Source: a virus (taxonomy: Duplodnaviria; Caudoviricetes). From it: a DNA stretch of 57,165 bases. A program made the position numbers and the translations under genes. Below are positions 15,707 through 38,082 of the stretch, in pieces (position 1 is the stretch's first letter; each line of letters opens with the position of its first letter). The stretch is from the IMG/VR virus record IMGVR_UViG_3300025115_000012, positions 1-57,165 of that record; one strand, given 5' to 3'. The notes under the pieces were generated by a model. It worked only from the letters and a program-made list of their open reading frames with translations. It had not been told where the DNA came from and did no database searches.

Positions 15707-16107
15707 TGGATTGGGGAGCACTAGCCGGAATGGCAGGAAGCATAGGCGGTAATTTACTACTACCAGGAGCAGGTACCTTAGCCGGTCCTGTAATGCAAGG
15801 CCTTGTAAATGGAATGTTGCCGCAAGATCAGACAAAAGCTGCACAGCAGTCTGTTCAAGAAATGGCGGCAAAAGAAACACAGAAACATAGTCAGCCACAA
15901 CAACAACCGCAACAGCAACAACCGCAGCAACCACAACAGTTTGATATAAATCAATTATCTCCAATGCTAATGCAAGCTTTAGGCATGGGTGGCAATATGG
16001 GTGGCATGACACAAACTATGCAAGGGATGACACAAGGTGCGGGTAATCAGAATCCATTAGGAAGCTTAGCACCATTAATAAGCGGTATGATGAGAGGAGG
16101 ACAATAA
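15706..16107 (+). CDS. Putative small ejection/pilot protein
   Basis: Gly-rich hydrophobic N-terminus (GALAGMAGSIGG...PGAGTLAG) and a poly-Q/P tract. Confidence 0.6.
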   Translation: MDWGALAGMAGSIGGNLLLPGAGTLAGPVMQGLVNGMLPQDQTKAAQQSVQEMAAKETQKHSQPQQQPQQQQPQQPQQFDINQLSPMLMQALGMGGNMGGMTQTMQGMTQGAGNQNPLGSLAPLISGMMRGGQ

Positions 16108-17777: not shown

Positions 17778-17789
17778 CAGGAGCAGGCA

Positions 17790-18407
17790 ATGGGTTTTAA
17801 AGCGAAATTCTCGACAGGCAAGGGCAAAGATAGATTTGAAGGTAACCATGAAGAGTATGAAAAATGGAAGAAAGACAGGGCAAACCAAGGTGAAGGCAAG
17901 GAATCCAAATCATCAACAGACCTTCACGAGTTGAGGAAACGACGTGATGCTCTTATAAACGAAACGGAATTCATGAAAGATCCGCCAAGTGGACATGATC
18001 CTGCAGCTATCCGTAAAGAAGTGGACGAGCACAGGAGAGGTACTTTCAAGGGTAAGTTAAGCGATACAGCTTCTCAAATTCGTAAACTTGATCAAGAAAT
18101 TAATAAGCTAAAAAAAGCTGAAGGCGACACTTCTTATGAACCTGACCGTTGGGCTAAAGTAGATAAGTCATGGGAAAAGAAGAAAAAATCTTCTGCTCCC
18201 AAGAAAGAAACTTCAAAGCCAAGCAATGAAACAGATTGGTTAAAAAAAGGAATGCTGCGTGGCAGTAAGTCATCTTCATCTAAGAACGAAATGACTGATT
18301 TGCAGAAGACTATAATAGAAAGTCAATCACAAGGTTTGTCTGCTCAACCCGAATTAAAAAAAAAACAGTCTCCGACACTAATGTCGAAAATCCTAAACCT
18401 GTCGTAG
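17790..18407 (+). CDS. Charged 205-aa protein; probable N-terminus of the giant protein via -1 shift at A10
   Basis: AGGAG SD before ATG 17790; A10 run at 18356..18365, where the -1 frame is continuous with the giant ORF. Confidence 0.7.
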   Translation: MGFKAKFSTGKGKDRFEGNHEEYEKWKKDRANQGEGKESKSSTDLHELRKRRDALINETEFMKDPPSGHDPAAIRKEVDEHRRGTFKGKLSDTASQIRKLDQEINKLKKAEGDTSYEPDRWAKVDKSWEKKKKSSAPKKETSKPSNETDWLKKGMLRGSKSSSSKNEMTDLQKTIIESQSQGLSAQPELKKKQSPTLMSKILNLS

Positions 18408-18508: not shown

Positions 18509-21500
18509 GTGCCTGAGAACGAGTTATTAACCATAAAACCTAATACTGATTTTGGTTTTAAACCGAGATTAAATCCAGGATTAAATCCTGGACAGCAAAT
18601 ACCTACCAAAGCTGATAAGACTGCTACGAATATACCTGACAAGGTCGCATTAGAGAATACTGCTGAAAGATACGATCCATTAAAGCGGATAGAGGCGGAC
18701 AGGACAGGTGCTTCATATACTCCATATAAGCCTAAATATGATTTGATACAAGGCAAAAGCAGGGAAGCTGAACAAATAAATAAAGTTAAAGCTTTGACAG
18801 ATGAGCTCGATTGGCAATATGACCCTGACAGGCTGGACAGGGAAGAAAATAAAAAGAGACTATATGGCGGTCTTGACTTAGGAGTTAGTTTTCACAAGAA
18901 GTGGGATTACGATAAAAATAGTTATACCCATACTATTGGTATTGATTTAAACAAAATAGACTTAGCCGAGCAAGAGCTGAATAAACGATTCAAAGAATTC
19001 GAGACTGAAATGCGATCAAAATTTGGTAACGATCCTTTAATGATGAGACGGTTAAATGAGGGTATAAACAGCGAAAGAGGGTTTCAAGGATTGTTGGATA
19101 CTGATTTCTCATGGGATGTTATAAAAGATTGGATGCATATAGCAGGTGGCGGAGCAGGTGAAGGAATGACCTTTAATCGAGATATGCGGAAAATGGTAGA
19201 TTTTATCCATACTTATTTAAAGGCTAAAGATGACTTGCGAAAAGTAAGAAATCTTCGTCCTTTGTCTGACCGGTTAAAAGAAAAGAATGGTGAAGAATAT
19301 CAAAATTATCATGAACGACCAATTAATTATGATTTCAATGATGTTGGCACTTATTATATGGGGAAAGCTATAGATGGAGCTTTCGGCAAATTGGCTAATG
19401 GCCTGTCTAAAAGATTCTTTGGAGAAACCATTTACAACAAATCAGATGTGCTAAGCTTGCAAGAGAATATCCAAAATTTTATAGAAAGCGGATATTATTC
19501 TGATAAACCTGAAATTGAACAAAATTCGGCTGAAATAGCACGTTATCTTGCAGAAAGAGACGAAAGCACAACAGGATTGTTCGATACGGCAGTCATGGTA
19601 GGTGGAGACATTGCTGAAATTGTAGCTAGTATGAGAGCCGGACCATTTGCACTAGGCGGCAGATTATACTCAAGTGGACGAAACGTCTGGAATGCTTACA
19701 AAGGTGTAGAAAGAGCAAATAAAATCAATCAGACTACTAAATTGATAAATCTTAATAAGATATATGCAGAAAGTCCGGAATATGCAAAACGGTATAATAT
19801 GTTCAAGGCATTATCAGGCAAACACAATACGAGAGGTGTAGCAAGTGGAGGCATGCTTCCGAAGGTTCAAGATCTATTAGGAAACAGAGCAGACTATATT
19901 GGGAACATGGTTGTCGGAAGTTTTGTAGATCAAATGTTATCTATGGACGAGAACCTAACTGCTCCGGAACTTGCAGAGGGTATGAGGAACATGGCAATCC
20001 TTGCTATGTTTAATTATCAATATTCTAAAGCGTTCATGTATGCAGGTCAAATGGCAGGCTTAACCAAGAATGTAATGCAAGGCACTAGATATGGTAATGC
20101 AGTAGGCAGCAAGTTTGACGCTTTAAGCAAGGCAATGATAGCAGCTGGTCAGTTTGCAGCACAACCTGGGCAAAGTTTGACTATTAACAATGTTTTGGAA
20201 GGGGAGGATTACACAGCCAAACAAATGGTAGCAGACGTGATGTTTGGATTTATGATGGGATATAATGATTTCTTACTAACTTCCAGATCTTACAAAGTGT
20301 TTAAAAGAGCAAATCTAAGAGATGATATTATAAAAAGCAATTATGCAGAAGTTGATTATATTCCGTATGAGCATATTTACTATACTGATACTCATACTAA
20401 CGAGTTAAGAACAAGAACCAAACCAATGACAGAAGGCAAAGAAGGCGACTTGTTACAAATAGATATGTCTAAACCAGAACAAGCTGCTTTTGACCAAGTT
20501 GTTCAAGATCGTATCAAACAAGCCGAAGGAACACTCAAGAAAGGTGAGATGATAACTGTCAAATCTAGCAACAAAGCGAATATGCAAGGTGTTTCAATCC
20601 TCAAAACACAAAGCTTTGGACGCAAGATTGATAGTGAAGTAAGACGGAAATTAAGCATTGACGAGAACATCCCCATTAAAGCAACTCATTTAATTGAAGC
20701 ATTTAGTGACGGTATGAACCAAGTGAGAATACCTAAGTATATCCAGGAATTATTTAAAGACATATCTGATAATATTGATGTAATCTTAACTGACCAATTG
20801 GGTGAAAGCACACCAGCTGCTTATAAAGATGGGAAATTTTACTTAAATGACAATTTAGGATTAGTTACCAAAACAGGCAAGATTGACAAAGAGGCATCAA
20901 TTGCGATATCTCACGAAATGACACACGCTTTGATAGACCATGCTATAAAGGTAAACCCTGACTTCGCCATTGCGATAGAAGAAATATACCAGCAATATTT
21001 TAATAAAGTAACAGATTTTGTAAAGAAAAATCCGGAAGCATACTCGATTATAAATGAAAAAGCAGGTGGTATTCTTAATAAGACGTTTTTGAATATAGAC
21101 AATGATGGCAATCCTGACCATTATAGGAATATGCAAGAAATGATAGCTTTAATGTATGAAGCTTCTTCAAAAGCTAAGTATTTCAGAACGTTAATGCACA
21201 ACGTAGATCCTAGTTTAAAAGGTAAATTTTTGGGTAAGATAGCCAATGCCTTTGGACTTTCACCTGAAGCATACAAAAGAATAGATCATGAATTAACCAA
21301 TTATAAGAAATATATTAATCCGGAAGCGGAGCAAACCGCCATAGATTACGATACAGGCACGGAAAATGCAATACCAGGTGAAATGCCCTATGCAGATGAA
21401 AACGTGGTTTACGATGAAGATGTGGACTATTTGGACAGTCCTGAAACGTTTCGACCTTTGGATATGTCTACGGAATCATTAAAAACAGATAGTTTTAAAG

Positions 21501-24500
21501 AATGGTTTGGCGATTGGGAAACGGATCCAGAGAATGCAAGTAAAACGACAGGCAGTTCCTGGAAAAAAATGATTACAGATGAATATCAAAAAGCTAAAAG
21601 TTCAGGCATGAAATACAGTGAACGACAAAAAATATTTGATCCACAGACTGGTGTTCTTAAACTGGATTTGAACGATCCTTATCATAACAGATTAAAATAT
21701 GAACTAGAAAATGACTTGCCTATTACTTTCTATCATGCAACAGGTGTAAGTGAAGATTTTACCCAATTCCAACCGTTCCGTAAACGCAAAACAGGGAATT
21801 GGTATGGAATATATGGCTCTATCAGTCCTAAATTAAATGAGTCTTATGCGGGGACAAAAAGGAATGAAAACAATTTGATAGATTTCGCAGACAAGGTAAA
21901 AGATGCTTTCACAGGCAATTGGAATAAAAAGCCTAATCTTGCTTCTCCAAGTCCACGGCAAATACCATTGTATTTTAATTTGAAAAACCCATTGATATTA
22001 AATGAGCATCTAGGTGGGAAGAAATTGGGTACAACTTATGTACAGTTTGATTATGAATTTCACAACCCTGTAGAACAAGCAAGAGAAACGTTCATAATGG
22101 TTAGGGATGTCCTAGCTAATGCATTAGGATCGAAAAGTCTAAAAAAAATAACCTATTCACAAGCAAAAGTAGCGGTAGGGACAATCGCAGCCTCATTGCC
22201 TTTGTTATTAGGTGAACCTGACGTATATAAATCTGTAGAAAATTTAGCCAGATTAGGTATGGTATCAGCGGGATTCGCATCATCCGGAGAAGTTGCTAGT
22301 TTGTTAGCTTCTTCTCTTTATCAAGTCAAAAGACAAATAGATAAAGTTACTAACCCTGTGGGTAAATTAGAAAAGAAAGTAGCCAAAAACCCAGAGAAAT
22401 ATACTGATATATCGTTTATTTCAGAAGGAATGTATAATATTCTTAAAAACATGGGATATGACGGAATTATATTTAATGATGGATTTGAAATATTAGCTTT
22501 TGATCCTACCCAGGTTAAGTCGGCTACGAGCAATAAGGGTACATACGATTCTAATAACCCTGACTTTTTGGAAATGGCAACTTCTTCATTGAGAGATGAC
22601 CTTGACGAGATCCTTGGTGGTGAATTTGATCTTAAAAAAGTTGAATTCATGGAAGAGGCAACAAGAATATTAACTCCTCAAGAACCGGGAACTAAAAGAG
22701 AAGTTAATAATGAAGAAAAAGTTAATTATGTTAGTCTAAAAAATAAGTTAAATTTAACAAATGAAGAATTTGTAAAATTACTTGGTCAGGACAAAACAAC
22801 TGTTGTCGAAAGGTTAAAACAAAATCCCGAACTGCAAGATCCTTTGGAAATAAATAACAATGCTCGCAAGATATTGCATACTGAACCTAAAAAGTCGTTT
22901 ATAATCAAAACTCGTGAAAGAGATTATGAAGATGATTCAATTGTGTTTTCAGGCATGGCAGAAGCCAATATTGACCCAACAGGGAAAAACATATTACCAT
23001 ATCGAGGACAGCCTGCTTATCTCAAAAAAGGATTTTCACGAATAGCAGCTGATACAAAAATTCCATTGTTACAAAAAATATTCAATTCTGAAATAATGGA
23101 TATAAACGGAGAAATAAATACTGTACTTACCTTCCAATTTCCTGCTAACAAGGTAAATCCACGCTCATTCTCGCCTACGTTTTTGCATTCAGCTATTGAC
23201 CAGGGTGTCTTCATCTTGCCTAAAACGACAGGTCAGAAAATGATGATTATTCCGGAACTAAAAGATATGAGCCGTGAATCTAAAAATGATTTTGTAAGAA
23301 AGGCAAATGCTGAAATTTTTGAAAAGGTTTTGGATTCGGACTATATATGGAATGACGATTATCAGAAACGTGAGCAAGTCATGAACACTGTTAAGTTGCT
23401 AGATATGGACAAGGTTATTCCTGCAGTTTTACTTGACAAACCTATAAAAATGCGTGAAGTTTTAAAACCTGAATATCAAGGCATGGATGATAAACAGTTG
23501 GAACCTTACATTGCCGTTAACAGCCTTATCAAACAGAAAATATTAGAATTCTATACCGATAATAGAAAAAACCGTCAAGTACCTGATTATTATCAAGACG
23601 ATGCTAAACCCAGCGATGTTTACGACGTATTGGCAAAGCATATATACATGCTTACAGATACCGGCGGGAAAACGTATTTTAATAAGTTTGACAAAGATGG
23701 TAAACCTAGTCTTATTAAAGGAACAGATAAATATGCTAATATCTTATTCTCGGAACATCATAATAAGCTTATAGATTATGATGACTTTAAGCTTACAGCT
23801 CAAGATGAGGTATTAGAACAAATGGAAGTTCCTGAACAAAAAGAACGTTTAAAGAATGTTTATGGTTCAGAAATAGATTCTAATGGTGATGTAAGAGTAA
23901 GAACTTTCAATTTTAATCAAGATATGGTAACTGACTTGTTAGATGCTTATCCCGAATTAAAAGACAGCTATAACAGATTTATACAATCTTTTGATGATAA
24001 TGTAACAGACGGAGCATTATTCTGTTTAAATCAACCTTTATATGATGTGCTTGCAAAGTCTTTGGGAATAACTGATACAAAAGGATTAGCCGGATTGAAA
24101 CCTAAAGGATTCGAATATGAAGACAATGGTAATATCCGTATAACAAAAGGTATGTTATGGGGACCGGAAAACTTTAAAAATTTTGGTAACAATGAGTTCC
24201 TTAGTAAGGTAATTGAAACAATGCAAGATAACAATATTGCGATATTGTCATTCCCTACTGCTTCGAAAGGTGCTCATACCAGGAGGGTTAAGTTTGCATC
24301 TTCACCTGATGGCAAAAACAGGTATGTTCTTAATAATGACAATAACTTAATTAGAGTAGAAGACCAAACTGAAAACGGTTGGGTATCTAATCCAGAAGCT
24401 ACTAATTTCGAGAAATCAAACATATTGAATAACTTGTTAAACAATAATGCACCCATCCCCGACCATTTTGTTTCTAAGTTAAAAATTACAGGTGATGACG

Positions 24501-27500
24501 CTCTTACGTTTGAACAGTATGTCCATAAATCTCAAGTAACAAATACTTCAAATGGGTTTGAAACCTTACCGGCCTTTAATGCGAGCAGTGCACTGTTCAA
24601 TACGCCGGAAGGCAATGCAGTGACAAGGATCATGAGAAACGTGATAAGGCAAAATATCAACAAGTACCGGAAAATTGATAATGCGTTATTAACCATTGGC
24701 AATCTAGGAAGACGAGTATTGGCTACACCTTCTAAATTAAGAGAAGATATCGAGTTTTCACGTAAAGAACTAAATAGCATCGGAATATATTTAAAAACAG
24801 CTAAACATCATTTCCAAAGAATGATTGATAATGACAGTGGTGAAGAAGCACAATACCTTTATAACATGAGAGCAGAAGATATGGTCAAAAAGATTGACGA
24901 GATGCTGGACGATAAAGGTAAATTCAAACCTAACTCATTAATGCTATTGTTTTCTTTGGACAATGTGGTTGGCGGGCCGTTCCTGTCACGTGGTCAGACT
25001 GTTTTGGCTAAAATATTGCTTTTCCAGAATCTTGAATCGAAAATTAAAGGTCGTATCCCGACTATTAATGCAAAGATTGCACCTGATATAAATATGGACA
25101 ATGTCCTTGCGACGACAAGAGAATTACTTGGCGAAGCGATTGATGCTGAAATGAATTATGATCCTGAAACAAACAGCTCTGATTATATAGATGAGTATGG
25201 CAAACTAAAAGAAGGAGGAGCTGTTATAGGGAAAGATATATGGGAACTTGAAAATCGCATGCGAGAACAAAATAACATGGAACCGTTAAGAATAGGTGAC
25301 AAGATGCTTTTTAACAAGACCCCTACTGATGATATGACTAACGTTCTAATCCCTACTAAATTCGCAGGTATATCACCAATGGACGGAGTTGCTATCATGA
25401 ATGGTAAATATGTTACTAAATACACAGGTGGTGATTATGATGGTGACGGTATAAATTATGTCCGGTCTGACAAGAACTTTAACAAAGCCGATTATGACAG
25501 GGTATATGACTACTTAGATAGTATTACAGAATTGAGAAAATCAGTCAAAGATGTTGCTAATGAATTTAAAGAACTAGTAGAAAAAGATACTAAGGGATAT
25601 CTTGTTATAAACAAGCTATTAGGACTTGAGCCAAAAGACAATAATATGTCATTAGCTTCAGAAGAGTTTGGTTCGAATATGGCGAAACACCAACTAGGAC
25701 AAGATAAGGGTATTGTGTTAATAAATAATATTGGACACGTATTGAACCAAGTCGCCCTAGATGCTAACAATAGTATCGCCAGCAATAAAGTTAAATTATC
25801 AGTAAAACTAAATTCTAGGGAAAGCCAGGAAATTAAAGTTAGGGTTAATCCAGCTTTGGATATTGATAAGCTAGGTATGTTATCCTTTCTTAAACAAACA
25901 TTTGTGGATAGTTACGAAACTATGCCATTTGATAGAGAAGAGGCTGTTTACCGGACAGTATTTAATGATGCTACAGTTTTCTTGCCTGATAAAACAACAA
26001 TGAGCCTAAAGGATTATATTAAATCTACCGGTAAACCGGCAATGCCAATATTAAGAGATATTTTTAAAAAGCTTGCAGAACCTAGCTTATTAGAAGCACG
26101 AGGATTGTGGAATGAACAGAATATTGCTGATATTGTAGATAAGGTATTAGGATTAGATTACCATGATGTCCCAAATCGCAAAGATGCTACTAGTTATCGT
26201 TATACTTTGAAAGATTATCGCAGAATATTAGCTAGCGATATGAAGGAATCACAGCTTATGCCTGATGTGGAACCTGTTATAGAACCGCCTTCTAAGGAAT
26301 TCCTTCCGGAAGTGTTAGAACAAAATGCTATACCTGGCGAAGAACCTGGACAGATTCCTAAATCGGTTAAAGAAGTTGCACAAAGTGAGACAAAACAAGA
26401 TGCGACACCTTCGTCTTTAAGTACAAAATACGAGTGGGCTAGATATGCAGAAAGCGGATATGAAGTGTCTTCGGCGGGGGATAAGAGGTTTAGTGCTTTA
26501 AATGCAAGGTTAAAAGACGGAAGGACAATTGAAGAGGCTTACCAATTGGATATCAAGGGTTATCGCAGCCAAGGTGACAATTGGAGATTAGGCAAAGGCA
26601 AAAAACCATTAAATAATATTACACCTGAAGACAGTTGGAGTAAATATAAAAGTCTTTGGGAACAATTCTTAAATGAAAATCCTGATCTTAAACAAGATTT
26701 AGCTCAAAAAGCACTTGGGAAGCCTCTCACAGACAAGTTTGCCGAGACCGATGTATCACAAGCAAGGGCATTAGCTGAAATTTTGAATGAGCAACCAATA
26801 ACGAGTTCTGACCAACCTATCCAGGCAGGACCGCCTAAAGTAGGTGAAATGCTGAAAGAAATGGTATCGGGAACTAAGTTAGGTGCTGCTTATGGTATTT
26901 TGAAAGGATTAGAGGGGATTCATGCTCCTGCTACTAAGTTATTGGTCGGGGACAACCCATTTGAATTATATGCCCGATTAAAAGAAAAATCTGATATTGT
27001 AAACACAGATGAATATACAGAGCAGGACGTTGTTGGGATTGTACCAACAGATAGATTTGAGCAATACGAAGAATTGCAAAATGCAATTAACAGCAATGTA
27101 CTAGGATTCACATTTGCAGTAAAAGCTCCAAGTGCAAATAAGGGTAAAAACGAAATATACGAAATAATCCAGGGTATGTTAAAGGAAGGCGGGTATCAAC
27201 GTTATAAAGACACTCATAAATGGTTCAAGCCGAAGAGCAAAACAACTACTGACAAAGCTGCACCTGAACAGCGTGTGAAATATGTGGATATGGGCAAATT
27301 TGACCGAGATCCTAATAACAGGGCTATGGGTACAAGTGCTGACAGAGCTATGAGGGAAGTAGCTGATGGGTTTATTGGGGAAGTGTTTAATGAAGACACA
27401 AAGAGTTCTACATCTACATCAAGTCTTCACTTCTCGAATGAAAACAATATTAGTAGAAGCACAGAACATCTTGGAACTGAAAAGGGAATGGTTTATTTTG

Positions 27501-30500
27501 ATTTACCTGATGAAGCTATTCCTGGAACCCATACCATTATGTTAGCACGTAATAGCGAACTTGCAAAAATAGGCTTAGACAATAGCACTAAAAAACAGAT
27601 AAAGGTAATGCATGATCAAGGCCATGATTTTGTAGTTGGGAATAGTTGGATAGATCAACCTTTCCATGATTATTTAGAGGAGATTGGAGCCAAATATACC
27701 GTTTATGGTCATGAAGGGAAGAACCGGATCAAACCTAAAGAAGTGAAAAGTATAACCGAACCATTGACGGCAAAGCCTAGTTCGGAACCAGCTCTAAAAA
27801 TAGAAGAAGTGCATCGTTATAATCCGGAATTGTTAAGAGAAAACCCTGATAAGTTATATGTATTTGGTGATAATCTTACAAGAAAGGGACGTGGCGGACA
27901 AGCTGTTATTAGAAAAGAACCTAATGCAGTAGGTATTGTTACTAAATTGGCACCATCTAAAGATGCTGCTGCTTATATGTCAGACAATGACTTGTCAAAT
28001 AACCAAAAAATCATTGATGCTGATATTCAAAATATAAAATCAAAACTTTCCCAATACCCAGGCGGGCTTGTCTTTCCTAAAGATGGGTTAGGAACAGGAT
28101 TGGCAGAATTGCATTGGCGTGCATCGGAAACATTCGCATATCTAAACAGAAGACTTGCAGAAGAATTCGGATACAAGAAATTCAACCGATTCCCAAACGA
28201 AACGACAACTACTAAAGAGCAAGCAGGTTCATTTACCGATGCTATAGCTAAACGGCTTGCTGATGAGAAGGCTAAAACTGCATCTCCTGTCCTGAATAAG
28301 CCTGAACATGTAATTTCGTTAGGTGACGGTATTCCTGTCATGGCTTATTTAGGTAGAGAGAATATGTACGAGAACGATCCTGCTTTTATTGATGCCGTTA
28401 GAAAAGCATTTCCTGGGATAGAATATGCTAATGAGAAATCGGCAGGAAGGTCTAATAGTGATTATATATATTTGAATGAATTTGCACCAGATAAATATGT
28501 TATGAATAATCGGGATAAGCACTTTGTTGTTTCAAATCAACGTTCTTGGCCTGTATTAACAGAGAATGGCATAAAATATTCTGTAATAGGGTATGAAGGT
28601 ATTAATTGGCCATTAAGAAAGGAACATTCACGCAATGAGTATAGCAATGAATTAACTCGCATGATTGCTATTCAGAAAATGCATAATTCAATTGATGAAG
28701 TATTACTTGGTCTTTCGAAAACTATTAAAGCTGATGCTCAACGTTTTCCGAAACTTAAAGAAATGTTTTCTCATTTCGAAAACGCAAAGAAATTTAATGA
28801 TAAGGTATGGATAAGTTCAGAACAAACACATATTGCTTTTCTTGTTGCCAATCTAGCTTATAATGGTCACAGATCGCATACATCAGAAGGAAACAGTTCG
28901 CCGTATGAAGTTTTCAATACCAAAACAAATCAATACGAACAAATGGAAATGCTGTATGGGCTGACTTCATTTAAAGATCATTTAGGATTGCCTTTATTCA
29001 AAAGTGACAAATTCCCGAATGTAAAAATCGCAGCCGGTACTATATTGAAATATTTGATTGATAACAATCCTGTTAAAAAAGGTGAATTTGTCGTATGGAA
29101 TAAGGATGATGCCCAGATTATAGCAAAAGATGGAGTATTAAATGCTTATCGTGGCGGAGAAGTAAAGAAACAGATTAACCTAAATGAGATATTTGACAAA
29201 GACGGCCGGTTAGTGCCTGATTGGTTGCCTTCTGATTTGTTGCAAAGTAAAAAGTTCAGAGAATTGATTGATATTCAAAATCCTATTAACAAGAAAGAAT
29301 TTGGTAAAGTAAGAGCTAAGATAGTAAAGAACATTGCCCATAATATGGCACAAGAAGCTGCACAGAGCGGATTAAATCTTGATAAGGATATATTAGCTAC
29401 CTATATCGCTTTTCACCCTGTAAAGTTAAGCAAATACTTAGCAGAACAGATTATAGGCGGGATATTTAACCCGATTTTCCCAAAACATGCGGATCCGAAA
29501 TATACTCTGCATAAAAAGACTGAGAACTATATCGGCAAAGGACGAGCACAGGATTATTTGGCAAGTAACAAAATGGACAATCCTTGGGATGCTATTAGTT
29601 ATTTAAAAGATGAAGGTATTAATTTGAAAATAAATCCTCAAGTAACTTTGGATGATCATTTGACTAAGAGCATTACAAGTGAAAGTATTGGGATCAAAGG
29701 ATTGGAAATGTCAATTGAATCTTTGCAAGATACTGAAACAAGTTTGAAACATAGCGGTTATCATGAGTTTTATAAATCTTTAGCTAAGATTATTGAACAA
29801 AGTCCGGATCCTGAATTAGTTAAATTACAAGGCAAGTCTATATTAGACTACAATTACGACGATATGAAAGTTTTGAACCGGAAAGTATTTCTTCCTCATT
29901 TGGAGAAGATATTGCCTAATCTTGCAATTAAAGCCAAAATGCCGCCAGAAAAAGTATCAAAATGGGCAAAAGACAATCTTGATAAAATCATGGACATGTA
30001 TGGACCGGCGGATCTTGTACGTGAACTTGAGGGTGATGGCGGTTATTATGACAAGTTAATAAGCCCGACTAATGATGTAAGGCAAATAGCGAAAAAACTT
30101 GCTCATATGAGTTATATAATGGCAGTTGCAGACATGCTAAAGAAATTTGAAACAATGAATACCGGAAAGGATATTCATAATTATCAAATCCTGAAGTCAA
30201 GAATTCCTACTCAAATGATAAATGAGTTCTCAGGGAATAAAACAGTTTATTCCTGGAATGAACAAATATTAGGTATTCCTTCGTTTAACGGTATGGGTAA
30301 TTCTGTCATGCATTATGAAATAATGGAACACAATCCTGCAATCAATACGGAAGTGTCATTGCCTTTTGGTACTTATGCTAAACAGTATCCATTAGTAAGG
30401 GCTATACAAAAGTTAACCGAATTGAAAGCTCATGTTGATATCCAAAACCAATATGTAGATAACCAATTAACAGCGTCAGAAAAACTGAACAAGAACAATT

Positions 30501-33500
30501 TAGCATTAGAATCTATTGAGAATTTAGAATCAGTCGGGTTTAATGTTATCGAACCATCCAGCATTGAAGGTGCAGGGAACCGGATTAAGAGTGGTCAGAA
30601 AATAACGGATATGATTGATATCCAAACTGCAAGTAATCGTGGGGTTAAAGAAGAAAGTGTTATTTCTTTGAAGTTGGATAAAATTATAAACTTCGCTTTA
30701 ACATCTGAAAACGTAAACACAGCAGTGGATATGCTTGTTGATGCTTGGGAAAGAAACATGATTGAATCTCAAGGATCCATGATGAACACAGATGGGACTT
30801 CGACATATGATCCTGCATATTATTTGTTAAAGACTAATAAACAGGCATTTGATTCAGACTTACCTTTAGCAGAACAGTTATCAGCCATGAAGGCAAATTT
30901 GACTGAACAGTTGAAAGATTACATTAACTACAAAGAAGCTGTTTTGACGTATAAAAATAGTTTGATGACTTATAAAGAAGCGTTAATAGATTTTGAACAA
31001 AGATATTTACGTAATAACGAAATAGTAGAAGCTAATCCTAATGTTAATATATTAAATGACTTAATGAAAATTCAGTCCTATATAGACCGGATTGGGAATG
31101 TTGAGGCAAAAGATCTTAATCGGCTTACCAAGACATTAAAGGAAGGAGTAAGTTTAAGCGAAGTCTCTACTATATTTGATCAAAAGTATATTAAACCGGC
31201 AGAAGAAACATTGAACAGTTATCAAAACAATGTAAAACTTATAAACGAACAAATAAACAATTCACTTAAAGGCAATGCTAAAAAAGGATTCCAAATCGGC
31301 AGGAATAAGATTCGTAAACTTATTGATTTATTAACTCCGGAAGAGAGGGTAGAGCTTGACCGAAATGGTTGGAGTTTCATGATAAAACGATTCCTTCCAG
31401 AAATTGATGCGATTGCTGAAGAATCTTCTTCTAAAGCGGAAAAGCTTGATGAGGGATTTAGGATTGTACCGGATCTTAAGGCAAAAGCTAAATTTATGAC
31501 GTTAATAGAACATGTTTATAATAACTATTATACTTTGAACAAACATCCTTATCATGACATGATGGTTAAATTAGGATGGTCAGAATATCTAGAAAAACCT
31601 TGGCATAGAATACATACCGCAAATGAATGGAAGTTAGCAAGTAAAGGCAGGGAGATGGTCTTACGTGCACACGAGAGTGCTGTTACAAGAGCTGCAAAGC
31701 AAGAAAGCATAACCGTCTTTCATAAAAAGGATGAGACTAAGTCATTTGAAAGTACTCAAGCTGAATTTAAGCAAATAATGGCTGGGAGCAAATCCAAACC
31801 TTATTGGGGATATACCGATTTATTAAATGCAAATTTTGACCAAACAGAAAAAGCAACTTACTTGTCAAATAGCATCAAAACATTTGGTGAAGATATTGGT
31901 GAAAGAATACAAGGTTCGTTATACAATGTATCTACAGAAAGCATGCGGGTATACTTGGATAACATGAAAGATCCTAACCCATTTGCTCACATGAATACGA
32001 TATCAGAACTTTCAAAAGCTTCTAATGGTCATTATAATTACAGACAAGTTATTGATCCGGCAGAATACAGATTAGAGTTCCATAATGCCGAATTAGGCAA
32101 TAACTTGTTTGTTCCTAAGGGATTAAGCACAGGTGATATCGTTTTGATTGGACTTGAAGGCGGGAGGACTATCCCGGTTAGAATGTTAGGCGGTATCAAA
32201 ATTAAGAATGCAAATGGTGTTTATGATGCATATTACGCTTTTGGGAATGATCCTACAAAGTCAAAAGATTTGAGTTACATTTCTGCTGATAGGATTAAGA
32301 GCATGCATAAAGCAAATGGTGAAACATACTTATCGAAAGCTATCCTGGAAGGTCAAAGAAAGAAATTAAACCAAATAATAAACAATGACCAGGAACTAGT
32401 AAATGCTATAAAAAACGTAGTTGAGATTAAGACAGGCGAACAAAACGTATCTTATGAAAGTTGGGAGAATACAGTGAATCCCAAAGTAGTAAAAGCAATT
32501 GACGAATCGTTGCAGACAAGTGGCGGTAGGAAGATAGTAGAATACATGGCCAATGCCAGCGACAAAGCTGCAGTAGCTTTGTATTACTTAAGGTTAAGGC
32601 ATTTAATAGACGGAGTATTTAAAGCAGGGCTTCATGTAGCTGCAAGCAATCCGGCAGGGGCGTTGTATAGTGGCTTATCTGCTACAACAAAATGGTTGCA
32701 AGGTGTGTTCTTCCAGATAAAGTTTCAAAACAGTATGGGTCATTATGACAGGATATATCAAAACAGTGTTCCGCAACGGAAATATATCAAAAACGGTGTA
32801 GGTGCAATAGGTAGAGGCGTTAGGGCATTGTTAGATCCTTGGTTCCAAAGTGGTGATACGAAGAATGAGATTAATGAAAGGAACATAGCTAATATCGCTT
32901 CACATCTGGTAGCAATGGAACATGGTTTAACAAAACAAACTTTAGGTCAAGAACAAATAAATAGTATTATAGACCGTGCTTTTGAGACTGAAGAAAAAGC
33001 TAATGCGGCAATATACGAAATGATAACAGGCAAAAAAGCTCCTTGGTGGAAACCAGGAGCAACTACGAGCTTGTTGAATAAAATGGCTAAAGGCATGCAA
33101 GAATTAGATCCTGCTTATGGTATTGACAATGAATTAGGTGAACAATTGCGTGCCGGTACAGAATATAACAGCCGGGCAGTTAAAAGAGTAGTTGATAGGC
33201 TTGAATGGGTTAAGGTACCAATAACAAAAAATGTGTATAATTCCCAGACTAAAAGACACGATATTGAAACACAATATTTCCATATTCCAAGGATTAAGGG
33301 CTTATCAGACAGGGATAATATTTTTGTTATGACACTCATGGATCAGTTGCTTGATATTGCATCATTAAAGGGCAGGATAGCGGCTAATGAAATAGGGAGT
33401 GCGAAAAAAGCAGTTACCTCATCTATAAACAATATGAACAGGTATCAATCGCAATATCTGTCCGGATTAGGTTCAATGACACCTGAATTTATGGCAAATA

Positions 33501-34297
33501 AGGCTAAGATTGACCAATATAAAATGATAGGCTATTACGGGAAGAATCTGAAACAGCAAGGATTAATGGCACGGCAGTTATTAAGATTTTCTAATTTTGG
33601 ATTTGAAAAAGGACAAGACCGCAGTACATATTGGAATATCAGGCGTGACATGTACAATGCATATAGAACAGCTATTGGTCCAAAATTCGATACATTCTTA
33701 AACGATATGGCAAAAATCGGTATTCCTATTGGCGAATGGTATTTAGCTGATCCTAAAGCAGATATGACAAGAACAGCAACTGCAATGTTCACATCTAAAG
33801 CACTAGGTGTATTGGTTAAATATAGTGTAAATGCACTAGGAGCAACTACGGCTAATGCTATTATGAGTGCTTTTGAAGATCCGGAAAAAGATTTAAGTGA
33901 GATATTTTCAATGTCCGGATTTGCTTTTGGTCCTTTAGAGATATTGGCAAATACATTAGCAGGAATAATAAATTTATATTTAATGTTTACAGCAGAAGGT
34001 AAAACAGGCAAACATGAAGCAGCTCTTCAGTCCAAACATGCTCGTGATTTTATGATGAACCCAGGCAAAGGATTTAGCGGCGTATTAGGGAAAGGTGCAA
34101 CTGACGCTATAAATGCTGTAACAGTTGCGTTATTTAATGCTTGGGCACATTTGGGCGGTTTTGACAATATGTATGATAGAGATCCATGGCAAAAATTAAA
34201 CAAGTATAATATGAAAGTTGAAGAAAATATGTTAAATTACATCTACGGCGGATTAGGAAATGCAAAAACCGCTGCAGAATTATATTACACCAAATAG
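18509..34297 (+). CDS. Giant polyvalent virion protein with two-barrel RNA polymerase, zincin, ART-like and NADAR/SLOG/macro-like domains
   Basis: HEMTH 20912..20926; FKEWFGDW...YHAT...GYDGII...AFDPTQVKSAT 21494..22567; TDG 24005, KGML 24146, GGDYDGD 25427..25447; YEVSSAGDKRFSAL 26459; YVFGDN...GGQA...GLGTGLA ~27815..28170. The start codon is uncertain. Confidence 0.85.
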   Translation: MPENELLTIKPNTDFGFKPRLNPGLNPGQQIPTKADKTATNIPDKVALENTAERYDPLKRIEADRTGASYTPYKPKYDLIQGKSREAEQINKVKALTDELDWQYDPDRLDREENKKRLYGGLDLGVSFHKKWDYDKNSYTHTIGIDLNKIDLAEQELNKRFKEFETEMRSKFGNDPLMMRRLNEGINSERGFQGLLDTDFSWDVIKDWMHIAGGGAGEGMTFNRDMRKMVDFIHTYLKAKDDLRKVRNLRPLSDRLKEKNGEEYQNYHERPINYDFNDVGTYYMGKAIDGAFGKLANGLSKRFFGETIYNKSDVLSLQENIQNFIESGYYSDKPEIEQNSAEIARYLAERDESTTGLFDTAVMVGGDIAEIVASMRAGPFALGGRLYSSGRNVWNAYKGVERANKINQTTKLINLNKIYAESPEYAKRYNMFKALSGKHNTRGVASGGMLPKVQDLLGNRADYIGNMVVGSFVDQMLSMDENLTAPELAEGMRNMAILAMFNYQYSKAFMYAGQMAGLTKNVMQGTRYGNAVGSKFDALSKAMIAAGQFAAQPGQSLTINNVLEGEDYTAKQMVADVMFGFMMGYNDFLLTSRSYKVFKRANLRDDIIKSNYAEVDYIPYEHIYYTDTHTNELRTRTKPMTEGKEGDLLQIDMSKPEQAAFDQVVQDRIKQAEGTLKKGEMITVKSSNKANMQGVSILKTQSFGRKIDSEVRRKLSIDENIPIKATHLIEAFSDGMNQVRIPKYIQELFKDISDNIDVILTDQLGESTPAAYKDGKFYLNDNLGLVTKTGKIDKEASIAISHEMTHALIDHAIKVNPDFAIAIEEIYQQYFNKVTDFVKKNPEAYSIINEKAGGILNKTFLNIDNDGNPDHYRNMQEMIALMYEASSKAKYFRTLMHNVDPSLKGKFLGKIANAFGLSPEAYKRIDHELTNYKKYINPEAEQTAIDYDTGTENAIPGEMPYADENVVYDEDVDYLDSPETFRPLDMSTESLKTDSFKEWFGDWETDPENASKTTGSSWKKMITDEYQKAKSSGMKYSERQKIFDPQTGVLKLDLNDPYHNRLKYELENDLPITFYHATGVSEDFTQFQPFRKRKTGNWYGIYGSISPKLNESYAGTKRNENNLIDFADKVKDAFTGNWNKKPNLASPSPRQIPLYFNLKNPLILNEHLGGKKLGTTYVQFDYEFHNPVEQARETFIMVRDVLANALGSKSLKKITYSQAKVAVGTIAASLPLLLGEPDVYKSVENLARLGMVSAGFASSGEVASLLASSLYQVKRQIDKVTNPVGKLEKKVAKNPEKYTDISFISEGMYNILKNMGYDGIIFNDGFEILAFDPTQVKSATSNKGTYDSNNPDFLEMATSSLRDDLDEILGGEFDLKKVEFMEEATRILTPQEPGTKREVNNEEKVNYVSLKNKLNLTNEEFVKLLGQDKTTVVERLKQNPELQDPLEINNNARKILHTEPKKSFIIKTRERDYEDDSIVFSGMAEANIDPTGKNILPYRGQPAYLKKGFSRIAADTKIPLLQKIFNSEIMDINGEINTVLTFQFPANKVNPRSFSPTFLHSAIDQGVFILPKTTGQKMMIIPELKDMSRESKNDFVRKANAEIFEKVLDSDYIWNDDYQKREQVMNTVKLLDMDKVIPAVLLDKPIKMREVLKPEYQGMDDKQLEPYIAVNSLIKQKILEFYTDNRKNRQVPDYYQDDAKPSDVYDVLAKHIYMLTDTGGKTYFNKFDKDGKPSLIKGTDKYANILFSEHHNKLIDYDDFKLTAQDEVLEQMEVPEQKERLKNVYGSEIDSNGDVRVRTFNFNQDMVTDLLDAYPELKDSYNRFIQSFDDNVTDGALFCLNQPLYDVLAKSLGITDTKGLAGLKPKGFEYEDNGNIRITKGMLWGPENFKNFGNNEFLSKVIETMQDNNIAILSFPTASKGAHTRRVKFASSPDGKNRYVLNNDNNLIRVEDQTENGWVSNPEATNFEKSNILNNLLNNNAPIPDHFVSKLKITGDDALTFEQYVHKSQVTNTSNGFETLPAFNASSALFNTPEGNAVTRIMRNVIRQNINKYRKIDNALLTIGNLGRRVLATPSKLREDIEFSRKELNSIGIYLKTAKHHFQRMIDNDSGEEAQYLYNMRAEDMVKKIDEMLDDKGKFKPNSLMLLFSLDNVVGGPFLSRGQTVLAKILLFQNLESKIKGRIPTINAKIAPDINMDNVLATTRELLGEAIDAEMNYDPETNSSDYIDEYGKLKEGGAVIGKDIWELENRMREQNNMEPLRIGDKMLFNKTPTDDMTNVLIPTKFAGISPMDGVAIMNGKYVTKYTGGDYDGDGINYVRSDKNFNKADYDRVYDYLDSITELRKSVKDVANEFKELVEKDTKGYLVINKLLGLEPKDNNMSLASEEFGSNMAKHQLGQDKGIVLINNIGHVLNQVALDANNSIASNKVKLSVKLNSRESQEIKVRVNPALDIDKLGMLSFLKQTFVDSYETMPFDREEAVYRTVFNDATVFLPDKTTMSLKDYIKSTGKPAMPILRDIFKKLAEPSLLEARGLWNEQNIADIVDKVLGLDYHDVPNRKDATSYRYTLKDYRRILASDMKESQLMPDVEPVIEPPSKEFLPEVLEQNAIPGEEPGQIPKSVKEVAQSETKQDATPSSLSTKYEWARYAESGYEVSSAGDKRFSALNARLKDGRTIEEAYQLDIKGYRSQGDNWRLGKGKKPLNNITPEDSWSKYKSLWEQFLNENPDLKQDLAQKALGKPLTDKFAETDVSQARALAEILNEQPITSSDQPIQAGPPKVGEMLKEMVSGTKLGAAYGILKGLEGIHAPATKLLVGDNPFELYARLKEKSDIVNTDEYTEQDVVGIVPTDRFEQYEELQNAINSNVLGFTFAVKAPSANKGKNEIYEIIQGMLKEGGYQRYKDTHKWFKPKSKTTTDKAAPEQRVKYVDMGKFDRDPNNRAMGTSADRAMREVADGFIGEVFNEDTKSSTSTSSLHFSNENNISRSTEHLGTEKGMVYFDLPDEAIPGTHTIMLARNSELAKIGLDNSTKKQIKVMHDQGHDFVVGNSWIDQPFHDYLEEIGAKYTVYGHEGKNRIKPKEVKSITEPLTAKPSSEPALKIEEVHRYNPELLRENPDKLYVFGDNLTRKGRGGQAVIRKEPNAVGIVTKLAPSKDAAAYMSDNDLSNNQKIIDADIQNIKSKLSQYPGGLVFPKDGLGTGLAELHWRASETFAYLNRRLAEEFGYKKFNRFPNETTTTKEQAGSFTDAIAKRLADEKAKTASPVLNKPEHVISLGDGIPVMAYLGRENMYENDPAFIDAVRKAFPGIEYANEKSAGRSNSDYIYLNEFAPDKYVMNNRDKHFVVSNQRSWPVLTENGIKYSVIGYEGINWPLRKEHSRNEYSNELTRMIAIQKMHNSIDEVLLGLSKTIKADAQRFPKLKEMFSHFENAKKFNDKVWISSEQTHIAFLVANLAYNGHRSHTSEGNSSPYEVFNTKTNQYEQMEMLYGLTSFKDHLGLPLFKSDKFPNVKIAAGTILKYLIDNNPVKKGEFVVWNKDDAQIIAKDGVLNAYRGGEVKKQINLNEIFDKDGRLVPDWLPSDLLQSKKFRELIDIQNPINKKEFGKVRAKIVKNIAHNMAQEAAQSGLNLDKDILATYIAFHPVKLSKYLAEQIIGGIFNPIFPKHADPKYTLHKKTENYIGKGRAQDYLASNKMDNPWDAISYLKDEGINLKINPQVTLDDHLTKSITSESIGIKGLEMSIESLQDTETSLKHSGYHEFYKSLAKIIEQSPDPELVKLQGKSILDYNYDDMKVLNRKVFLPHLEKILPNLAIKAKMPPEKVSKWAKDNLDKIMDMYGPADLVRELEGDGGYYDKLISPTNDVRQIAKKLAHMSYIMAVADMLKKFETMNTGKDIHNYQILKSRIPTQMINEFSGNKTVYSWNEQILGIPSFNGMGNSVMHYEIMEHNPAINTEVSLPFGTYAKQYPLVRAIQKLTELKAHVDIQNQYVDNQLTASEKLNKNNLALESIENLESVGFNVIEPSSIEGAGNRIKSGQKITDMIDIQTASNRGVKEESVISLKLDKIINFALTSENVNTAVDMLVDAWERNMIESQGSMMNTDGTSTYDPAYYLLKTNKQAFDSDLPLAEQLSAMKANLTEQLKDYINYKEAVLTYKNSLMTYKEALIDFEQRYLRNNEIVEANPNVNILNDLMKIQSYIDRIGNVEAKDLNRLTKTLKEGVSLSEVSTIFDQKYIKPAEETLNSYQNNVKLINEQINNSLKGNAKKGFQIGRNKIRKLIDLLTPEERVELDRNGWSFMIKRFLPEIDAIAEESSSKAEKLDEGFRIVPDLKAKAKFMTLIEHVYNNYYTLNKHPYHDMMVKLGWSEYLEKPWHRIHTANEWKLASKGREMVLRAHESAVTRAAKQESITVFHKKDETKSFESTQAEFKQIMAGSKSKPYWGYTDLLNANFDQTEKATYLSNSIKTFGEDIGERIQGSLYNVSTESMRVYLDNMKDPNPFAHMNTISELSKASNGHYNYRQVIDPAEYRLEFHNAELGNNLFVPKGLSTGDIVLIGLEGGRTIPVRMLGGIKIKNANGVYDAYYAFGNDPTKSKDLSYISADRIKSMHKANGETYLSKAILEGQRKKLNQIINNDQELVNAIKNVVEIKTGEQNVSYESWENTVNPKVVKAIDESLQTSGGRKIVEYMANASDKAAVALYYLRLRHLIDGVFKAGLHVAASNPAGALYSGLSATTKWLQGVFFQIKFQNSMGHYDRIYQNSVPQRKYIKNGVGAIGRGVRALLDPWFQSGDTKNEINERNIANIASHLVAMEHGLTKQTLGQEQINSIIDRAFETEEKANAAIYEMITGKKAPWWKPGATTSLLNKMAKGMQELDPAYGIDNELGEQLRAGTEYNSRAVKRVVDRLEWVKVPITKNVYNSQTKRHDIETQYFHIPRIKGLSDRDNIFVMTLMDQLLDIASLKGRIAANEIGSAKKAVTSSINNMNRYQSQYLSGLGSMTPEFMANKAKIDQYKMIGYYGKNLKQQGLMARQLLRFSNFGFEKGQDRSTYWNIRRDMYNAYRTAIGPKFDTFLNDMAKIGIPIGEWYLADPKADMTRTATAMFTSKALGVLVKYSVNALGATTANAIMSAFEDPEKDLSEIFSMSGFAFGPLEILANTLAGIINLYLMFTAEGKTGKHEAALQSKHARDFMMNPGKGFSGVLGKGATDAINAVTVALFNAWAHLGGFDNMYDRDPWQKLNKYNMKVEENMLNYIYGGLGNAKTAAELYYTK

Positions 34298-34689: not shown

Positions 34690-35203
34690 TCTTCCATATG
34701 ACGAATTAGGCAGGTTGTTAGAGCCTGCTCATTCTAAGCCAAGTGTTCCTAAGTTCCATGAAATGACTGAAGAACAGCTGAAAGAGAAAGCTATTAGATT
34801 AGCTATTGACAACGCCCATTTAAAGCGGACAATGAGAAAGTATGAGCCAATCGAAATAGAATTCGGAGTAGATGACAATTTCAATTTGTTCATGAGCAAG
34901 ATTAAATCAGTTGCTATTATAATCAAGCATGCAGCCGGTTTGATTGACTATATTGCGAAAATAATTATATTAATAAACAAATACAAGGGAGCAAAGATGG
35001 ATGCCGATAAAAAAACAACCAAAGTAGGCTTGATTAAAGTCGGGTTTGGATTATTGACTTTAGTTTTGAGTTTTTTCAAAATAACAGTTCCGGAAGCAAT
35101 GTTAGATCCATTAATTGACAATGTGTTATGGTTCTCGTCTGGTGGAGGATATTTGTTATTCTCATACATCCAAGCGTTCTTCACTAATAAAGAGAAGAAG
35201 TAA
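34676..35203 (+). CDS. Holin-like membrane protein with internal in-frame start at 34997
   Basis: The C-terminal 68 aa have two hydrophobic segments and a basic tail; AAGGGAG precedes ATG 34997. Confidence 0.6.
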   Translation: MSESSLPYDELGRLLEPAHSKPSVPKFHEMTEEQLKEKAIRLAIDNAHLKRTMRKYEPIEIEFGVDDNFNLFMSKIKSVAIIIKHAAGLIDYIAKIIILINKYKGAKMDADKKTTKVGLIKVGFGLLTLVLSFFKITVPEAMLDPLIDNVLWFSSGGGYLLFSYIQAFFTNKEKK

Positions 35204-35204
35204 G

Positions 35205-37728: not shown

Positions 37729-37731
37729 ATG

Positions 37732-37762
37732 CAAAATTACTATTATATCTGTTAATACCAAA
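37732..37762 (-). promoter_or_regulatory. Bacteroidota-type housekeeping promoter TTTG-N19-TAATTTTG
   Basis: Minus strand reads TTTG gtattaacagatataatag TAATTTTG cat ATG; matches TTTG-N19-21-TAnnTTTG. Confidence 0.7.
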
Positions 37763-37764
37763 AT

Positions 37765-37799
37765 AAAAAAAAATAGCCTAGGTGTTAACCTAGACTATT
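37765..37799 (-). terminator. Intrinsic terminator of 37795..38082
   Basis: Minus strand AATAGTCTAGG-ttaaca-CCTAGGCTATT followed by a T run. Confidence 0.75.
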
Positions 37800-38082
37800 C
37801 TGCTAATAACAACTCAAGCCGTGTTAATTTGCGTTCTAAATCTTTCACTCTCTCGTCTAATATCGCTCTGGCATAACGATATAGACTGTCCCCTTCAGGT
37901 TCGAATAATGCTATTTCTTCCTCGAACTCTTCGATGAGAAAACAGTCGTTTGCTAAACTCCACCTGGTTAAGTCATTAGCTGATGGATTCAAAAACGTTG
38001 CTGTCTCTTCTCCGTTGTGGTCGAATATGGTGTATGTAACACCATTTTCGTGGAACATAATTTTACATGTTGCTGGCTTCAT
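37795..38082 (-). CDS. Hypothetical protein
   Basis: AAGGAG SD on the minus strand; terminator at its stop codon. Confidence 0.75.
   Translation of the reverse strand: MKPATCKIMFHENGVTYTIFDHNGEETATFLNPSANDLTRWSLANDCFLIEEFEEEIALFEPEGDSLYRYARAILDERVKDLERKLTRLELLLAE

Follow-up and report, generated by a model that had tools for sequence, protein, structure and literature searches.

By injecting an RNA polymerase (RNAP), a phage can begin its programme with no need for that of the host. The gp66 protein of phi14:2, a crAss-like phage, is reported to be packaged, to be injected and to transcribe the early genes, its DFDID active site being self-inhibited, and in some crAss-like phages gp65, gp66 and gp67 are fused into a polyprotein (10.1101/2020.03.07.982082). 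The structure of gp96, the virion RNAP of Thermus phage P23-45, has also been solved (10.1101/2022.12.01.518664), and a 2026 paper on N4 lists N4 gp50 and phi14:2 gp66 as the only structurally characterised virion RNAPs (PMC13434306). N4-like virion RNAPs are described as always fused to zincins, and injection to jump-start transcription is given as a predicted theme of polyvalent proteins (PMC5512222). The active site of QDE-1, a polymerase of the RNA interference (RNAi) type, is reported to consist of one Asp and several Lys/Arg residues of the first barrel and three Asp residues of the second (PMC9508822). Here we describe P0001, a 5262-residue protein encoded by the IMG/VR virus record IMGVR_UViG_3300025115_000012, which was analysed as a whole (57,165 nt; the window). 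We read P0001 as a giant polyvalent phage protein with a two-barrel RNAP at its core, which would be made late, packaged and injected, and would start early transcription. We assign this reading a probability of about 0.72.

The gene is a single open reading frame (ORF) on the + strand, has no internal stops and takes up 15,789 of the 57,165 nt (27.6%). An earlier annotation made from the letters of the window alone (the sequence-only reading) had described it as one protein of more than 5200 residues filling about 28% of the genome, and this description holds. The coordinates it gave for the motifs TDG, KGML, GDKMLFNKTP and GGDYDGD were recomputed and are all exact, and HEMTH lies ahead of them, as it had stated (Table 1). 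P0001 begins with an N-terminal zincin-like module, which an ART-PolyVal insert separates from the polymerase; three small accessory domains come next, and a C-terminal module of about 2000 residues completes the protein.

A full phmmer pass with P0001 over 1.84 billion representative proteins (E <= 1e-3) returned six relatives, P0003 to P0008. P0003 (4562 aa) and P0005 (4406 aa) are full-length, P0004 (3070 aa) is a fragment that covers the last two conserved blocks from aa 1863 on, P0006 (5684 aa) matches the RNAP part only, and P0007 and P0008 are short pieces. Scanning viral contigs with the single protein gave no further relative, and scanning them with the family alignment gave one locus, L001, a 55,683-bp IMG/VR contig with a relative of 4520 aa, an unchanged gene order and a terminase 64% identical to that of the window. 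None of the 187 pattern matches in metagenome contigs and none of the 112 in genome contigs was confirmed as a relative. Three colinear blocks (aa ~106-1028, 1354-2620 and 3258-5252) are conserved in P0003, P0005 and the L001 protein according to blastp, and the intervening segments 1030-1353, 2622-2775 and most of 2922-3257 have no blastp match in these proteins or in P0004. The ART insert and the accessory domains are largely specific to P0001.

The three aspartates of the putative catalytic loop are present in all six sequences that cover it, as the sequence-only reading had named beforehand as a check, and the glycine at position 4 is present in five. The loop reads DYDGD in P0001, DFDGD in the L001 protein, P0003, P0004 and P0006, and DYDFD in P0005; P0004 and the L001 protein are nearly identical in this region, and hence the number of independent sequences is five. 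Also conserved in the family alignment are the TDG Asp, the first Lys in KPK and one Lys each in TKG and TASKG, all four in every relative that covers them, as well as the G-x(4-5)-K-x-P-x-D pattern of GDKMLFNKTPTDD, NKTPTDD-like motifs, a GQDxGI..NNI segment and KQTFVD. Given the composition of P0001, D.DGD and HE..H are each expected about 0.10 times by chance, so that a motif by itself is weak proof and conservation and fold have to decide.

We compared the family alignment (8 rows, 7 of them used after filtering) in hhalign with a profile of the crAss-like RNAP core, which was built from residues 850-1760 of phi14:2 gp66 and the matching parts of eight tblastn loci (six Crassvirales records, Flavobacterium phage Fpv1 and L009, the last of which contributes a 96-aa piece only). 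The two profiles match over 728 columns with a probability of 88.7%, an E-value of 2.6e-6 and a score of 64.3, whereas controls with reversed template or query gave E-values of 0.45 and 0.49 and scores of 19-20. The comparison with gp66 had likewise been proposed in advance. Along the alignment, KPK of the P0001 family is in register with PLK of the crAss-like proteins, TKG with K, TASKG with aVKVG, NKTPTDD with YRIPTQG, TGGDYDGD with TGSDFDID, GQDKGIVLINN with GGKSGVGITAN and KQTFVDS with NAFVDNAKD. The GGKSGVGITAN segment of gp66 falls inside its bridge helix, reported at residues 1529-1559 (10.1101/2020.03.07.982082).

Both halves of the polymerase contribute to this match. With the sequence split at P0001 residue 2200, the first-barrel pair aligned with an E-value of 6e-4 and the second-barrel pair with 9.1e-6, versus 0.13 and 0.55 for the crossed pairs and 0.84 and 0.63 for the reversed ones. 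The first-barrel motif block alone matched the crAss profile at 3e-4 (0.59 when reversed), and it is only in this restricted run that TDG comes into register with NQTDAQ of the crAss-like proteins. All eight crAss-like rows that cover the block have the NQTDAQ Asp as well as the Lys in K and in aVKVG. TDG and KGML therefore land on the conserved Asp and Lys of the crAss first barrel, and as the QDE-1 active site is likewise made of a first-barrel Asp with Lys/Arg followed by three second-barrel Asp residues, the motif order proposed by the sequence-only reading appears to be right.

Against single sequences, the second-barrel half matched P23-45 gp64 (E = 2.7e-5, with the DYDGD of gp64 in register with the loop of P0001), gp96 (6.1e-5) and phi14:2 gp66 (5.9e-3). 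The first-barrel half did not match gp64 or gp96 in hhalign (0.27 and 0.76). The control runs for these comparisons, made with reversed sequences or with the two unrelated terminal modules of P0001, stayed at 0.1-0.55. Among the features of the ESM Atlas, 16 of 30 matches belong to the PF05183 RdRP set, which at the low recognition obtained is a lead only. Taken together, the profile matches to the crAss cores and to the P23-45 proteins place aa ~1354-2620, as far as sequence comparison can tell, in the phage/RNAi clade of single-chain two-barrel RNA polymerases (crAss-like gp66, P23-45 gp64 and gp96, QDE-1), with either the crAss type or the P23-45 type as the nearest family. Inside the module, the predicted first barrel, in which one Asp and three Lys are conserved, leads through a connector to the second barrel, and a bridge-helix-like segment comes last. 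By analogy, Asp2309, Asp2311 and Asp2313 are predicted to be Mg2+ ligands, and the module is predicted to perform Mg2+- and template-dependent RNA synthesis.

The fold around the loop was examined with AlphaFold2 models computed from shallow alignments of 7 and 8 rows. In the model of aa 1800-2530, model residues 430-550 reach a pLDDT (predicted local distance difference test) of 72-85, and all 49 entries among the Protein Data Bank (PDB) matches listed by Foldseek for this model are RNAPs. The RNAP gp64 of phage P32 superposes on it, the root mean square deviation being 2.9 Å over 89 columns. In BFVD, a database of predicted viral structures, 13 matches had E <= 1e-3 (best 2.5e-6). The whole list consists mostly of pieces of crAss-like giant proteins, one of them named putative RNA polymerase, and phi14:2 gp66 is found in it at rank 23; the TM-scores are low (<= 0.23), as would be expected from a poor model. 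The model of aa 1420-2615 gave weak PDB matches, of which the best (E = 0.24) was again P32 gp64, mixed with unrelated entries. The models thus point to a second, beta-prime-like double-psi beta-barrel (DPBB) around the DxDGD loop that superposes on RNAP active-site barrels, which is the fold the sequence-only reading had asked for. It had asked for a pair of such barrels, and for the first the indications are the conserved motifs and the alignment.

Upstream of the polymerase, the HEMTH motif belongs to a zincin-like region. HExxH is kept in all four full-length relatives, and a conserved N..QE.IA.MYE motif with the downstream Glu follows about 70 residues on. The N-terminal module aligned in hhalign to the phi14:2 zincin gp65 with an E-value of 0.0024 and both motifs in register, versus 0.54 for gp66 and 0.30 for gp67. 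No Pfam peptidase family matched the zincin region, and Pfam and PHROG scans assigned no family to the module as a whole. The following insert contains a match to the ART-PolyVal ADP-ribosyltransferase profile PF18760 well above its cut-off (41.6 bits versus 31.2, E = 2.7e-10), although the best stretch corresponds only to the C-terminal part of the profile. Both the zincin ahead of the loop and the polyvalent-protein domains claimed by the sequence-only reading are thereby borne out, and P0001 combines several domains with a zincin in the manner of polyvalent proteins.

No block of P0001 is more strongly conserved than the C-terminal module. Scans of Pfam, PHROG and NCBIfam gave no family for it, and the best score in the Atlas (0.76) provided no lead. 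In hhalign its E-values were 0.13-0.4 against gp65, gp66 and gp67, 0.32-0.59 against the N- and C-terminal domains of N4 gp50 and 0.1-0.29 against P23-45 gp64 and gp96. Between this module and the polymerase lie the three accessory domains, the second of which (aa 2918-3079) has no family match in Pfam or NCBIfam.

Two metagenomic proteins share accessory domains with P0001. In P0007 (552 aa), a first-barrel-like stretch equivalent to aa 1824-2035 keeps the DG, KPK, K and TASKG positions, and the domain of aa 2918-3079 comes immediately after it, with no second barrel in the protein. P0007 may be a split polymerase or a decayed copy, or else a fragment from a contig. P0002 (3876 aa), the only protein besides P0001 itself to be returned by a word-indexed protein search, shares only phrog_9995 (54% identity over 158 residues) and also carries PF08902 and PF12694, which we take as a sign of domain shuffling among giant phage proteins.

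Table 1. Features of P0001 and of the window, with residues of P0001, nucleotide positions in the window and the basis of each assignment.
Feature	Residues (aa)	Position (nt)	Strand	Basis
Giant ORF, P0001	5262 in total	18509..34297	+	ORF listing and translation
Conserved N-terminal module	~106-1028	18824..21592	+	blastp blocks common to L001 protein, P0003 and P0005
Zincin-like metallopeptidase region with HEMTH and downstream N..QE.IA.MYE	~738-890	20720..21178	+	Conservation, hhalign
HEMTH	from 802	20912-20926		Recomputed
P0001-specific insert with ART-PolyVal domain	1030-1353	21596..22567	+	PF18760; absent from L001 protein and P0003
PF18760 match	1290-1345	22376-22543		
Predicted two-barrel RNA polymerase module	1354-2620	22568..26368	+	hhalign with controls, Foldseek, VIA, P23-45 gp64/gp96 matches
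Predicted first barrel (beta-like, DPBB-B), motif block: TDG Asp1834, KPK, TKG Lys1880, TASKG Lys1920	1828-1925	23990..24283	+	Conservation in every relative covering the positions; hhalign to crAss-like motifs, E 3e-4 (reversed 0.59)
TDG	from 1833	24005		Recomputed
KGML	from 1880	24146		Recomputed
Predicted second barrel (beta-prime-like, DPBB-A), including NKTPTDD	2175-2351	25031..25561	+	
GDKMLFNKTP	from 2263	25295		Recomputed
Putative catalytic loop GGDYDGD (Asp2309, Asp2311, Asp2313)	from 2307	25427..25447	+	Aligned to gp66 DFDID and P23-45 gp64 DYDGD; recomputed
Bridge-helix-like segment GQDKGIVLINNIGHVL	2395-2412	25691..25744	+	Family conservation and hhalign to gp66 GGKSGVGITAN; alignment alone
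Accessory domain phrog_9995	2641-2762	26429..26794	+	E 4.4e-45; also in P0002
Accessory domain common to P0007	2918-3079	27260..27745	+	blastp, 34% identity, E 3.6e-14
Accessory domain DUF7831 / phrog_2072	3104-3214	27818..28150	+	PF25176, E 2e-35 to 2e-36; phrog_2072, E 3.3e-10
Conserved C-terminal module	3258-5252	28280..34264	+	blastp, E reported as 0.0 to P0003, P0004 and L001 protein, 1e-115 to P0005
Beta-helix tail fibre		12527-14308		
Large terminase		35115-37019		Nearest to N4-like phages, 22-24% identity
DUF7222		40953-41366		
RusA-like protein		41898-42725		
DnaB-like helicase		46459-47847		
Exonuclease		48017-48895		
P22-like portal		49375-51597		
SU10-type capsid protein		52816-54303		PF17236 SU10_MCP, E 2.5e-19

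The window comprises the whole record, and its completeness is rated at 100%. Its two ends (1-348 and 56818-57165) carry a 348-bp direct repeat with 343 of 348 positions identical, which gives a genome of about 56.8 kb. The repeat is either a terminal redundancy or the product of a circularly permuted genome whose assembly wrapped around; the five mismatches suggest mixed strains. The sequence-only reading was hence correct in calling the genome smaller than those of crAss-like phages, as it is about half their size. Nearly all genes are on the + strand, and the giant gene ends the tail/structural operon just before the terminase. Among the ORFs scanned, no DNA polymerase, primase, second RNA polymerase or sigma-like gene was recognised, nor was a tape measure among the window proteins scanned. 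The tail type can be surmised only from the P22-like portal together with this lack of a recognised tape measure. An ORF of 1408 aa in the tail-gene region (3045-7271) has no PHROG or Pfam match.

The possibility that this is a small crAss-like phage was considered and rejected on the grounds of its SU10-type capsid protein and the comparison with phi14:2. The window capsid protein gave no match to Crass_capsid at E <= 0.01, whereas the major capsid protein of phi14:2, used as a control, matched this profile (PF23898) at 8e-200. A blastp comparison of 27 window proteins with 20 virion and packaging proteins of phi14:2 produced one match below 1e-3, a 31-residue piece of a tail fibre.

A non-coding, AT-rich region flanked by ATATATA runs (38770-39477) separates a rightward block of small genes from the leftward ORFs (36913-38609), which are the only ones in that direction. 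It contains two similar, near-perfect hairpins at 38980-39020 and 39041-39085 with arms of 19 and 21 nt and 3-nt loops, and their core GATATAC-NNN-GTATAGA occurs twice, only here (at least two matches were obtained in 7 of 100 shuffles). We guess that early transcription or replication might be controlled from here, the region being a candidate for an origin or for early promoters. Further on, the ORF 39810-40445 (phrog_15341) contains a 9-nt tandem repeat at 39874-40242, reported in 26 overlapping copies, that encodes a 3-residue peptide repeat.

In the mechanism that we favour, P0001 would be made late, as the structural proteins are, be packed into the head, possibly be cut by its own zincin, and be expelled into the host along with the DNA. 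The polymerase would then transcribe the earliest genes of the phage without help from the host RNAP, with Asp2309, Asp2311 and Asp2313 holding Mg2+, and the ART and accessory domains may act on host targets or defences. Packaging and injection are suggested by the place of the gene between the tail genes and the terminase, by the behaviour found in experiments for phi14:2 gp66, N4 gp50 and P23-45 gp96 together with the proposed injection of polyvalent proteins, and by the constant fusion of N4-type virion polymerases to zincins.

A number of results weigh against this reading. The RNAP family is shallow, with its five independent sequences. Pfam, PHROGs and NCBIfam contain nothing that matches aa ~1350-2620, tblastn of the polymerase part found no match in 50,697 phage records, phmmer of the same part against PDB sequences had an unrelated best match at E = 1.3, and the family profile found only a seryl-tRNA synthetase there (E = 3.7). 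The AlphaFold2 models are poor overall, with a mean pLDDT of 44.8 (aa 1420-2615) and 49.5 (aa 1800-2530); the latter had no PDB match at E <= 0.001 in Foldseek (best 1.3e-3), and neither 6VR4 (gp66) nor 2J7N (QDE-1) is among the PDB structural matches listed. Neither model shows the first barrel confidently, so its fold is proposed from the profile alignment only. The sequence-only reading had stated that the gene follows ejection-protein-like genes, which we could not confirm: the upstream ORFs 14810-15706, 16107-17777 and 17790-18407 have no PHROG or Pfam match, and hhalign of the four upstream ORFs (14810-18407) against N4 gp51 and gp52 gave E-values of 0.21-0.74. The true start or the mode of initiation of P0001 also appears uncertain. 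The first start codon in frame, the GTG at 18509, has no obvious Shine-Dalgarno sequence, in contrast to other genes (AAGGAG is found ahead of 39478 and of 39810). The frame itself stays open back to 18299 and overlaps the final 109 nt of the upstream gene 17790-18407. Finally, all 19-residue windows of P0001 are below a Kyte-Doolittle value of 1.5, with moderately hydrophobic stretches only near aa 357-591, 1221-1267 and 5089-5209; the idea of a membrane anchor readable from the sequence was dropped for this reason.

In one alternative, the polymerase is real but does not travel in the virion. It could instead be made in the infected cell, as are P23-45 gp64 and the non-virion RNAPs of jumbo phages, and transcribe middle or late genes, its fusion partners being unrelated cargo or parts that act in the cytoplasm after synthesis. 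The best score of the DPBB-A half is indeed that against the non-virion gp64. Since neither another RNAP nor a sigma-like gene was recognised among the scanned ORFs, the phage might also use an enzyme of its own for some transcription after the early stage. However, gp96, the virion form in the same phage, scores about equally well, the gene is located inside the structural operon and adjoins tail genes and terminase, and zincin and ART-PolyVal domains are typical of injected polyvalent proteins. Furthermore, the known giant RNAP fusions of crAss-like phages, N4 and P23-45 (gp96) are all virion proteins (10.1101/2020.03.07.982082, PMC13434306, 10.1101/2022.12.01.518664). We consider a non-virion enzyme unlikely.

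About three quarters of P0001 is not polymerase and its best-conserved block is the 2000-aa C-terminal module, so P0001 might serve mainly as an ejection or structural protein, with its two-barrel module inactive or used otherwise, for instance in the priming of DNA replication or in RNA-templated RNA synthesis. QDE-1-type enzymes are reported to use both RNA and DNA templates (PMC9508822), and neither a DNA polymerase nor a primase was recognised in the window ORFs scanned. The conservation of all metal-binding Asp residues and of the Asp and Lys residues of the first barrel is, on the other hand, the pattern expected from selection for catalysis, and we regard such a use as distinctly unlikely. 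That the motifs arose by chance, with no polymerase fold behind them, is very improbable: a single D.DGD has an expectation of 0.10, the confidence of the models is low and direct searches found no known RNAP, but this explanation is contradicted by the conservation, the profile comparisons and the structural matches presented above. A packaged and injected two-barrel RNAP therefore remains our preferred reading of P0001.

Giant two-barrel RNAP fusions as such are already known, since crAss-like fusions (Suoliviridae, Fpv1 and the gp65-gp67 fusions) and the 5002-aa gp96 are on record. What is new here is a separate and very sparse sequence family that is invisible to ordinary annotation, in a genome half as large as those of crAss-like phages and with another type of capsid. 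New as well are the zincin upstream of the polymerase, the canonical Gly-containing DxDGD loop in place of DFDID and the large conserved C-terminal module without a known relative. The literature searched contains no description of a phage of about 57 kb with such a protein, which is not proof of absence. Only tentatively do we suggest that P0001 is the type of an undescribed lineage at about the family level (~56 kb, SU10-like capsid, P22-like portal, N4-like terminase), in which an RNAP of the QDE-1/crAss clade with an ancestral Gly loop has been fused to the whole presumed injection apparatus in one gene. If this is true, virion two-barrel polymerases would be no speciality of crAss-like phages but a mobile module of old standing that short-tailed phages exchange with one another, and the P0001 family could link the eukaryotic RNAi polymerases with those of the crAss and P23-45 types. 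On our main reading, the family would extend the two-barrel virion type past Crassvirales and into a half-size genome. It also illustrates how a polymerase can drift beyond the reach of ordinary annotation, as it escaped Pfam, PHROGs and NCBIfam and also tblastn and the sequence searches of the PDB. Its members differ in their inserted domains (ART, DUF7831, phrog_9995) and form a natural series for studying the role of injected polyvalent domains. As the DxDGD loop is kept, unlike the self-inhibited DFDID of gp66, the active state may be easier to study in this family.

In comparison with known systems, the crAss-like RNAPs (phi14:2 gp66, PDB 6VR4) resemble P0001 in what appears to be a single chain with both barrels, connector and bridge helix, colinear throughout the profile alignment, and they share the Asp/Lys motifs of the first barrel. 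A zincin with HExxH and a downstream Glu is associated with the polymerase in P0001 as it is in phi14:2, where it is gp65. Fused coding sequences of comparable size, 4300-4950 aa, occur in Suoliviridae (cr55_1, cr50_1, cr118_1, cr10_1 and cr113_1), and Fpv1 has an RNAP fusion of 4401 aa. Polyvalent-type annotations are also found in the crAss-like giants, ART-PolyVal-like for a piece of cr116_1 and DprA-like for cr113_1. The two nevertheless differ in the loop, where position 4 is Gly in P0001 but Ile or Val in all eight crAss-like sequences that show it (phi14:2 and seven loci), and in the order of the zincin, which precedes the polymerase in P0001 whereas gp65 is encoded downstream of gp66. 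They also differ in the C-terminal 2000 residues, which are unlike gp65, gp66 and gp67 in hhalign, in the capsid (SU10-type versus Crass_capsid) and in genome size (~57 kb versus 89-103 kb), and neither tblastn nor the profile search of PDB sequences matched P0001 to a crAss-like RNAP directly.

P23-45 gp96 is likewise a virion fusion of about 5000 aa, its record carries a metallopeptidase note, and it aligns in the DPBB-A half, as does the non-virion gp64, with the first-barrel half of P0001 unmatched. However, gp96 is fused to the tape measure of a long-tailed phage, whereas the portal of the window is P22-like and a tape measure was not recognised there. To N4 (Schitoviridae) the window is connected by its terminase, for which N4-like phages are nearest. 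The polymerase of N4 gp50 is T7-like and single-subunit, unlike the two-barrel module of P0001 (PMC5512222, PMC13434306); no T7-type polymerase domain was found in P0001, which has no polymerase match in Pfam, PHROG or NCBIfam and whose polymerase part matched no phage record in tblastn. In hhalign, the N- and C-terminal modules of P0001 gave E-values of 0.06-0.59 against the N-terminal part (aa 1-1000) and the C-terminal domain of gp50, and profile similarity to gp51 or gp52 was not found either.

With QDE-1 and the RNAi polymerases of PF05183, P0001 appears to have in common a single chain with two barrels, one Asp in the first and three Asp in the second, QDE-1 being compared here by its description. 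Its loop, which we take to read DYDGD, would be the same as that of P0001. The polyvalent proteins of Iyer et al. 2017 have been linked through their zincins to N4-type RNAPs, and searching that paper for 'double-psi' and 'crAss' gives no match (PMC5512222). P0001 shares with these proteins several unrelated enzymatic domains in one polypeptide, a zincin hub and an ART domain.

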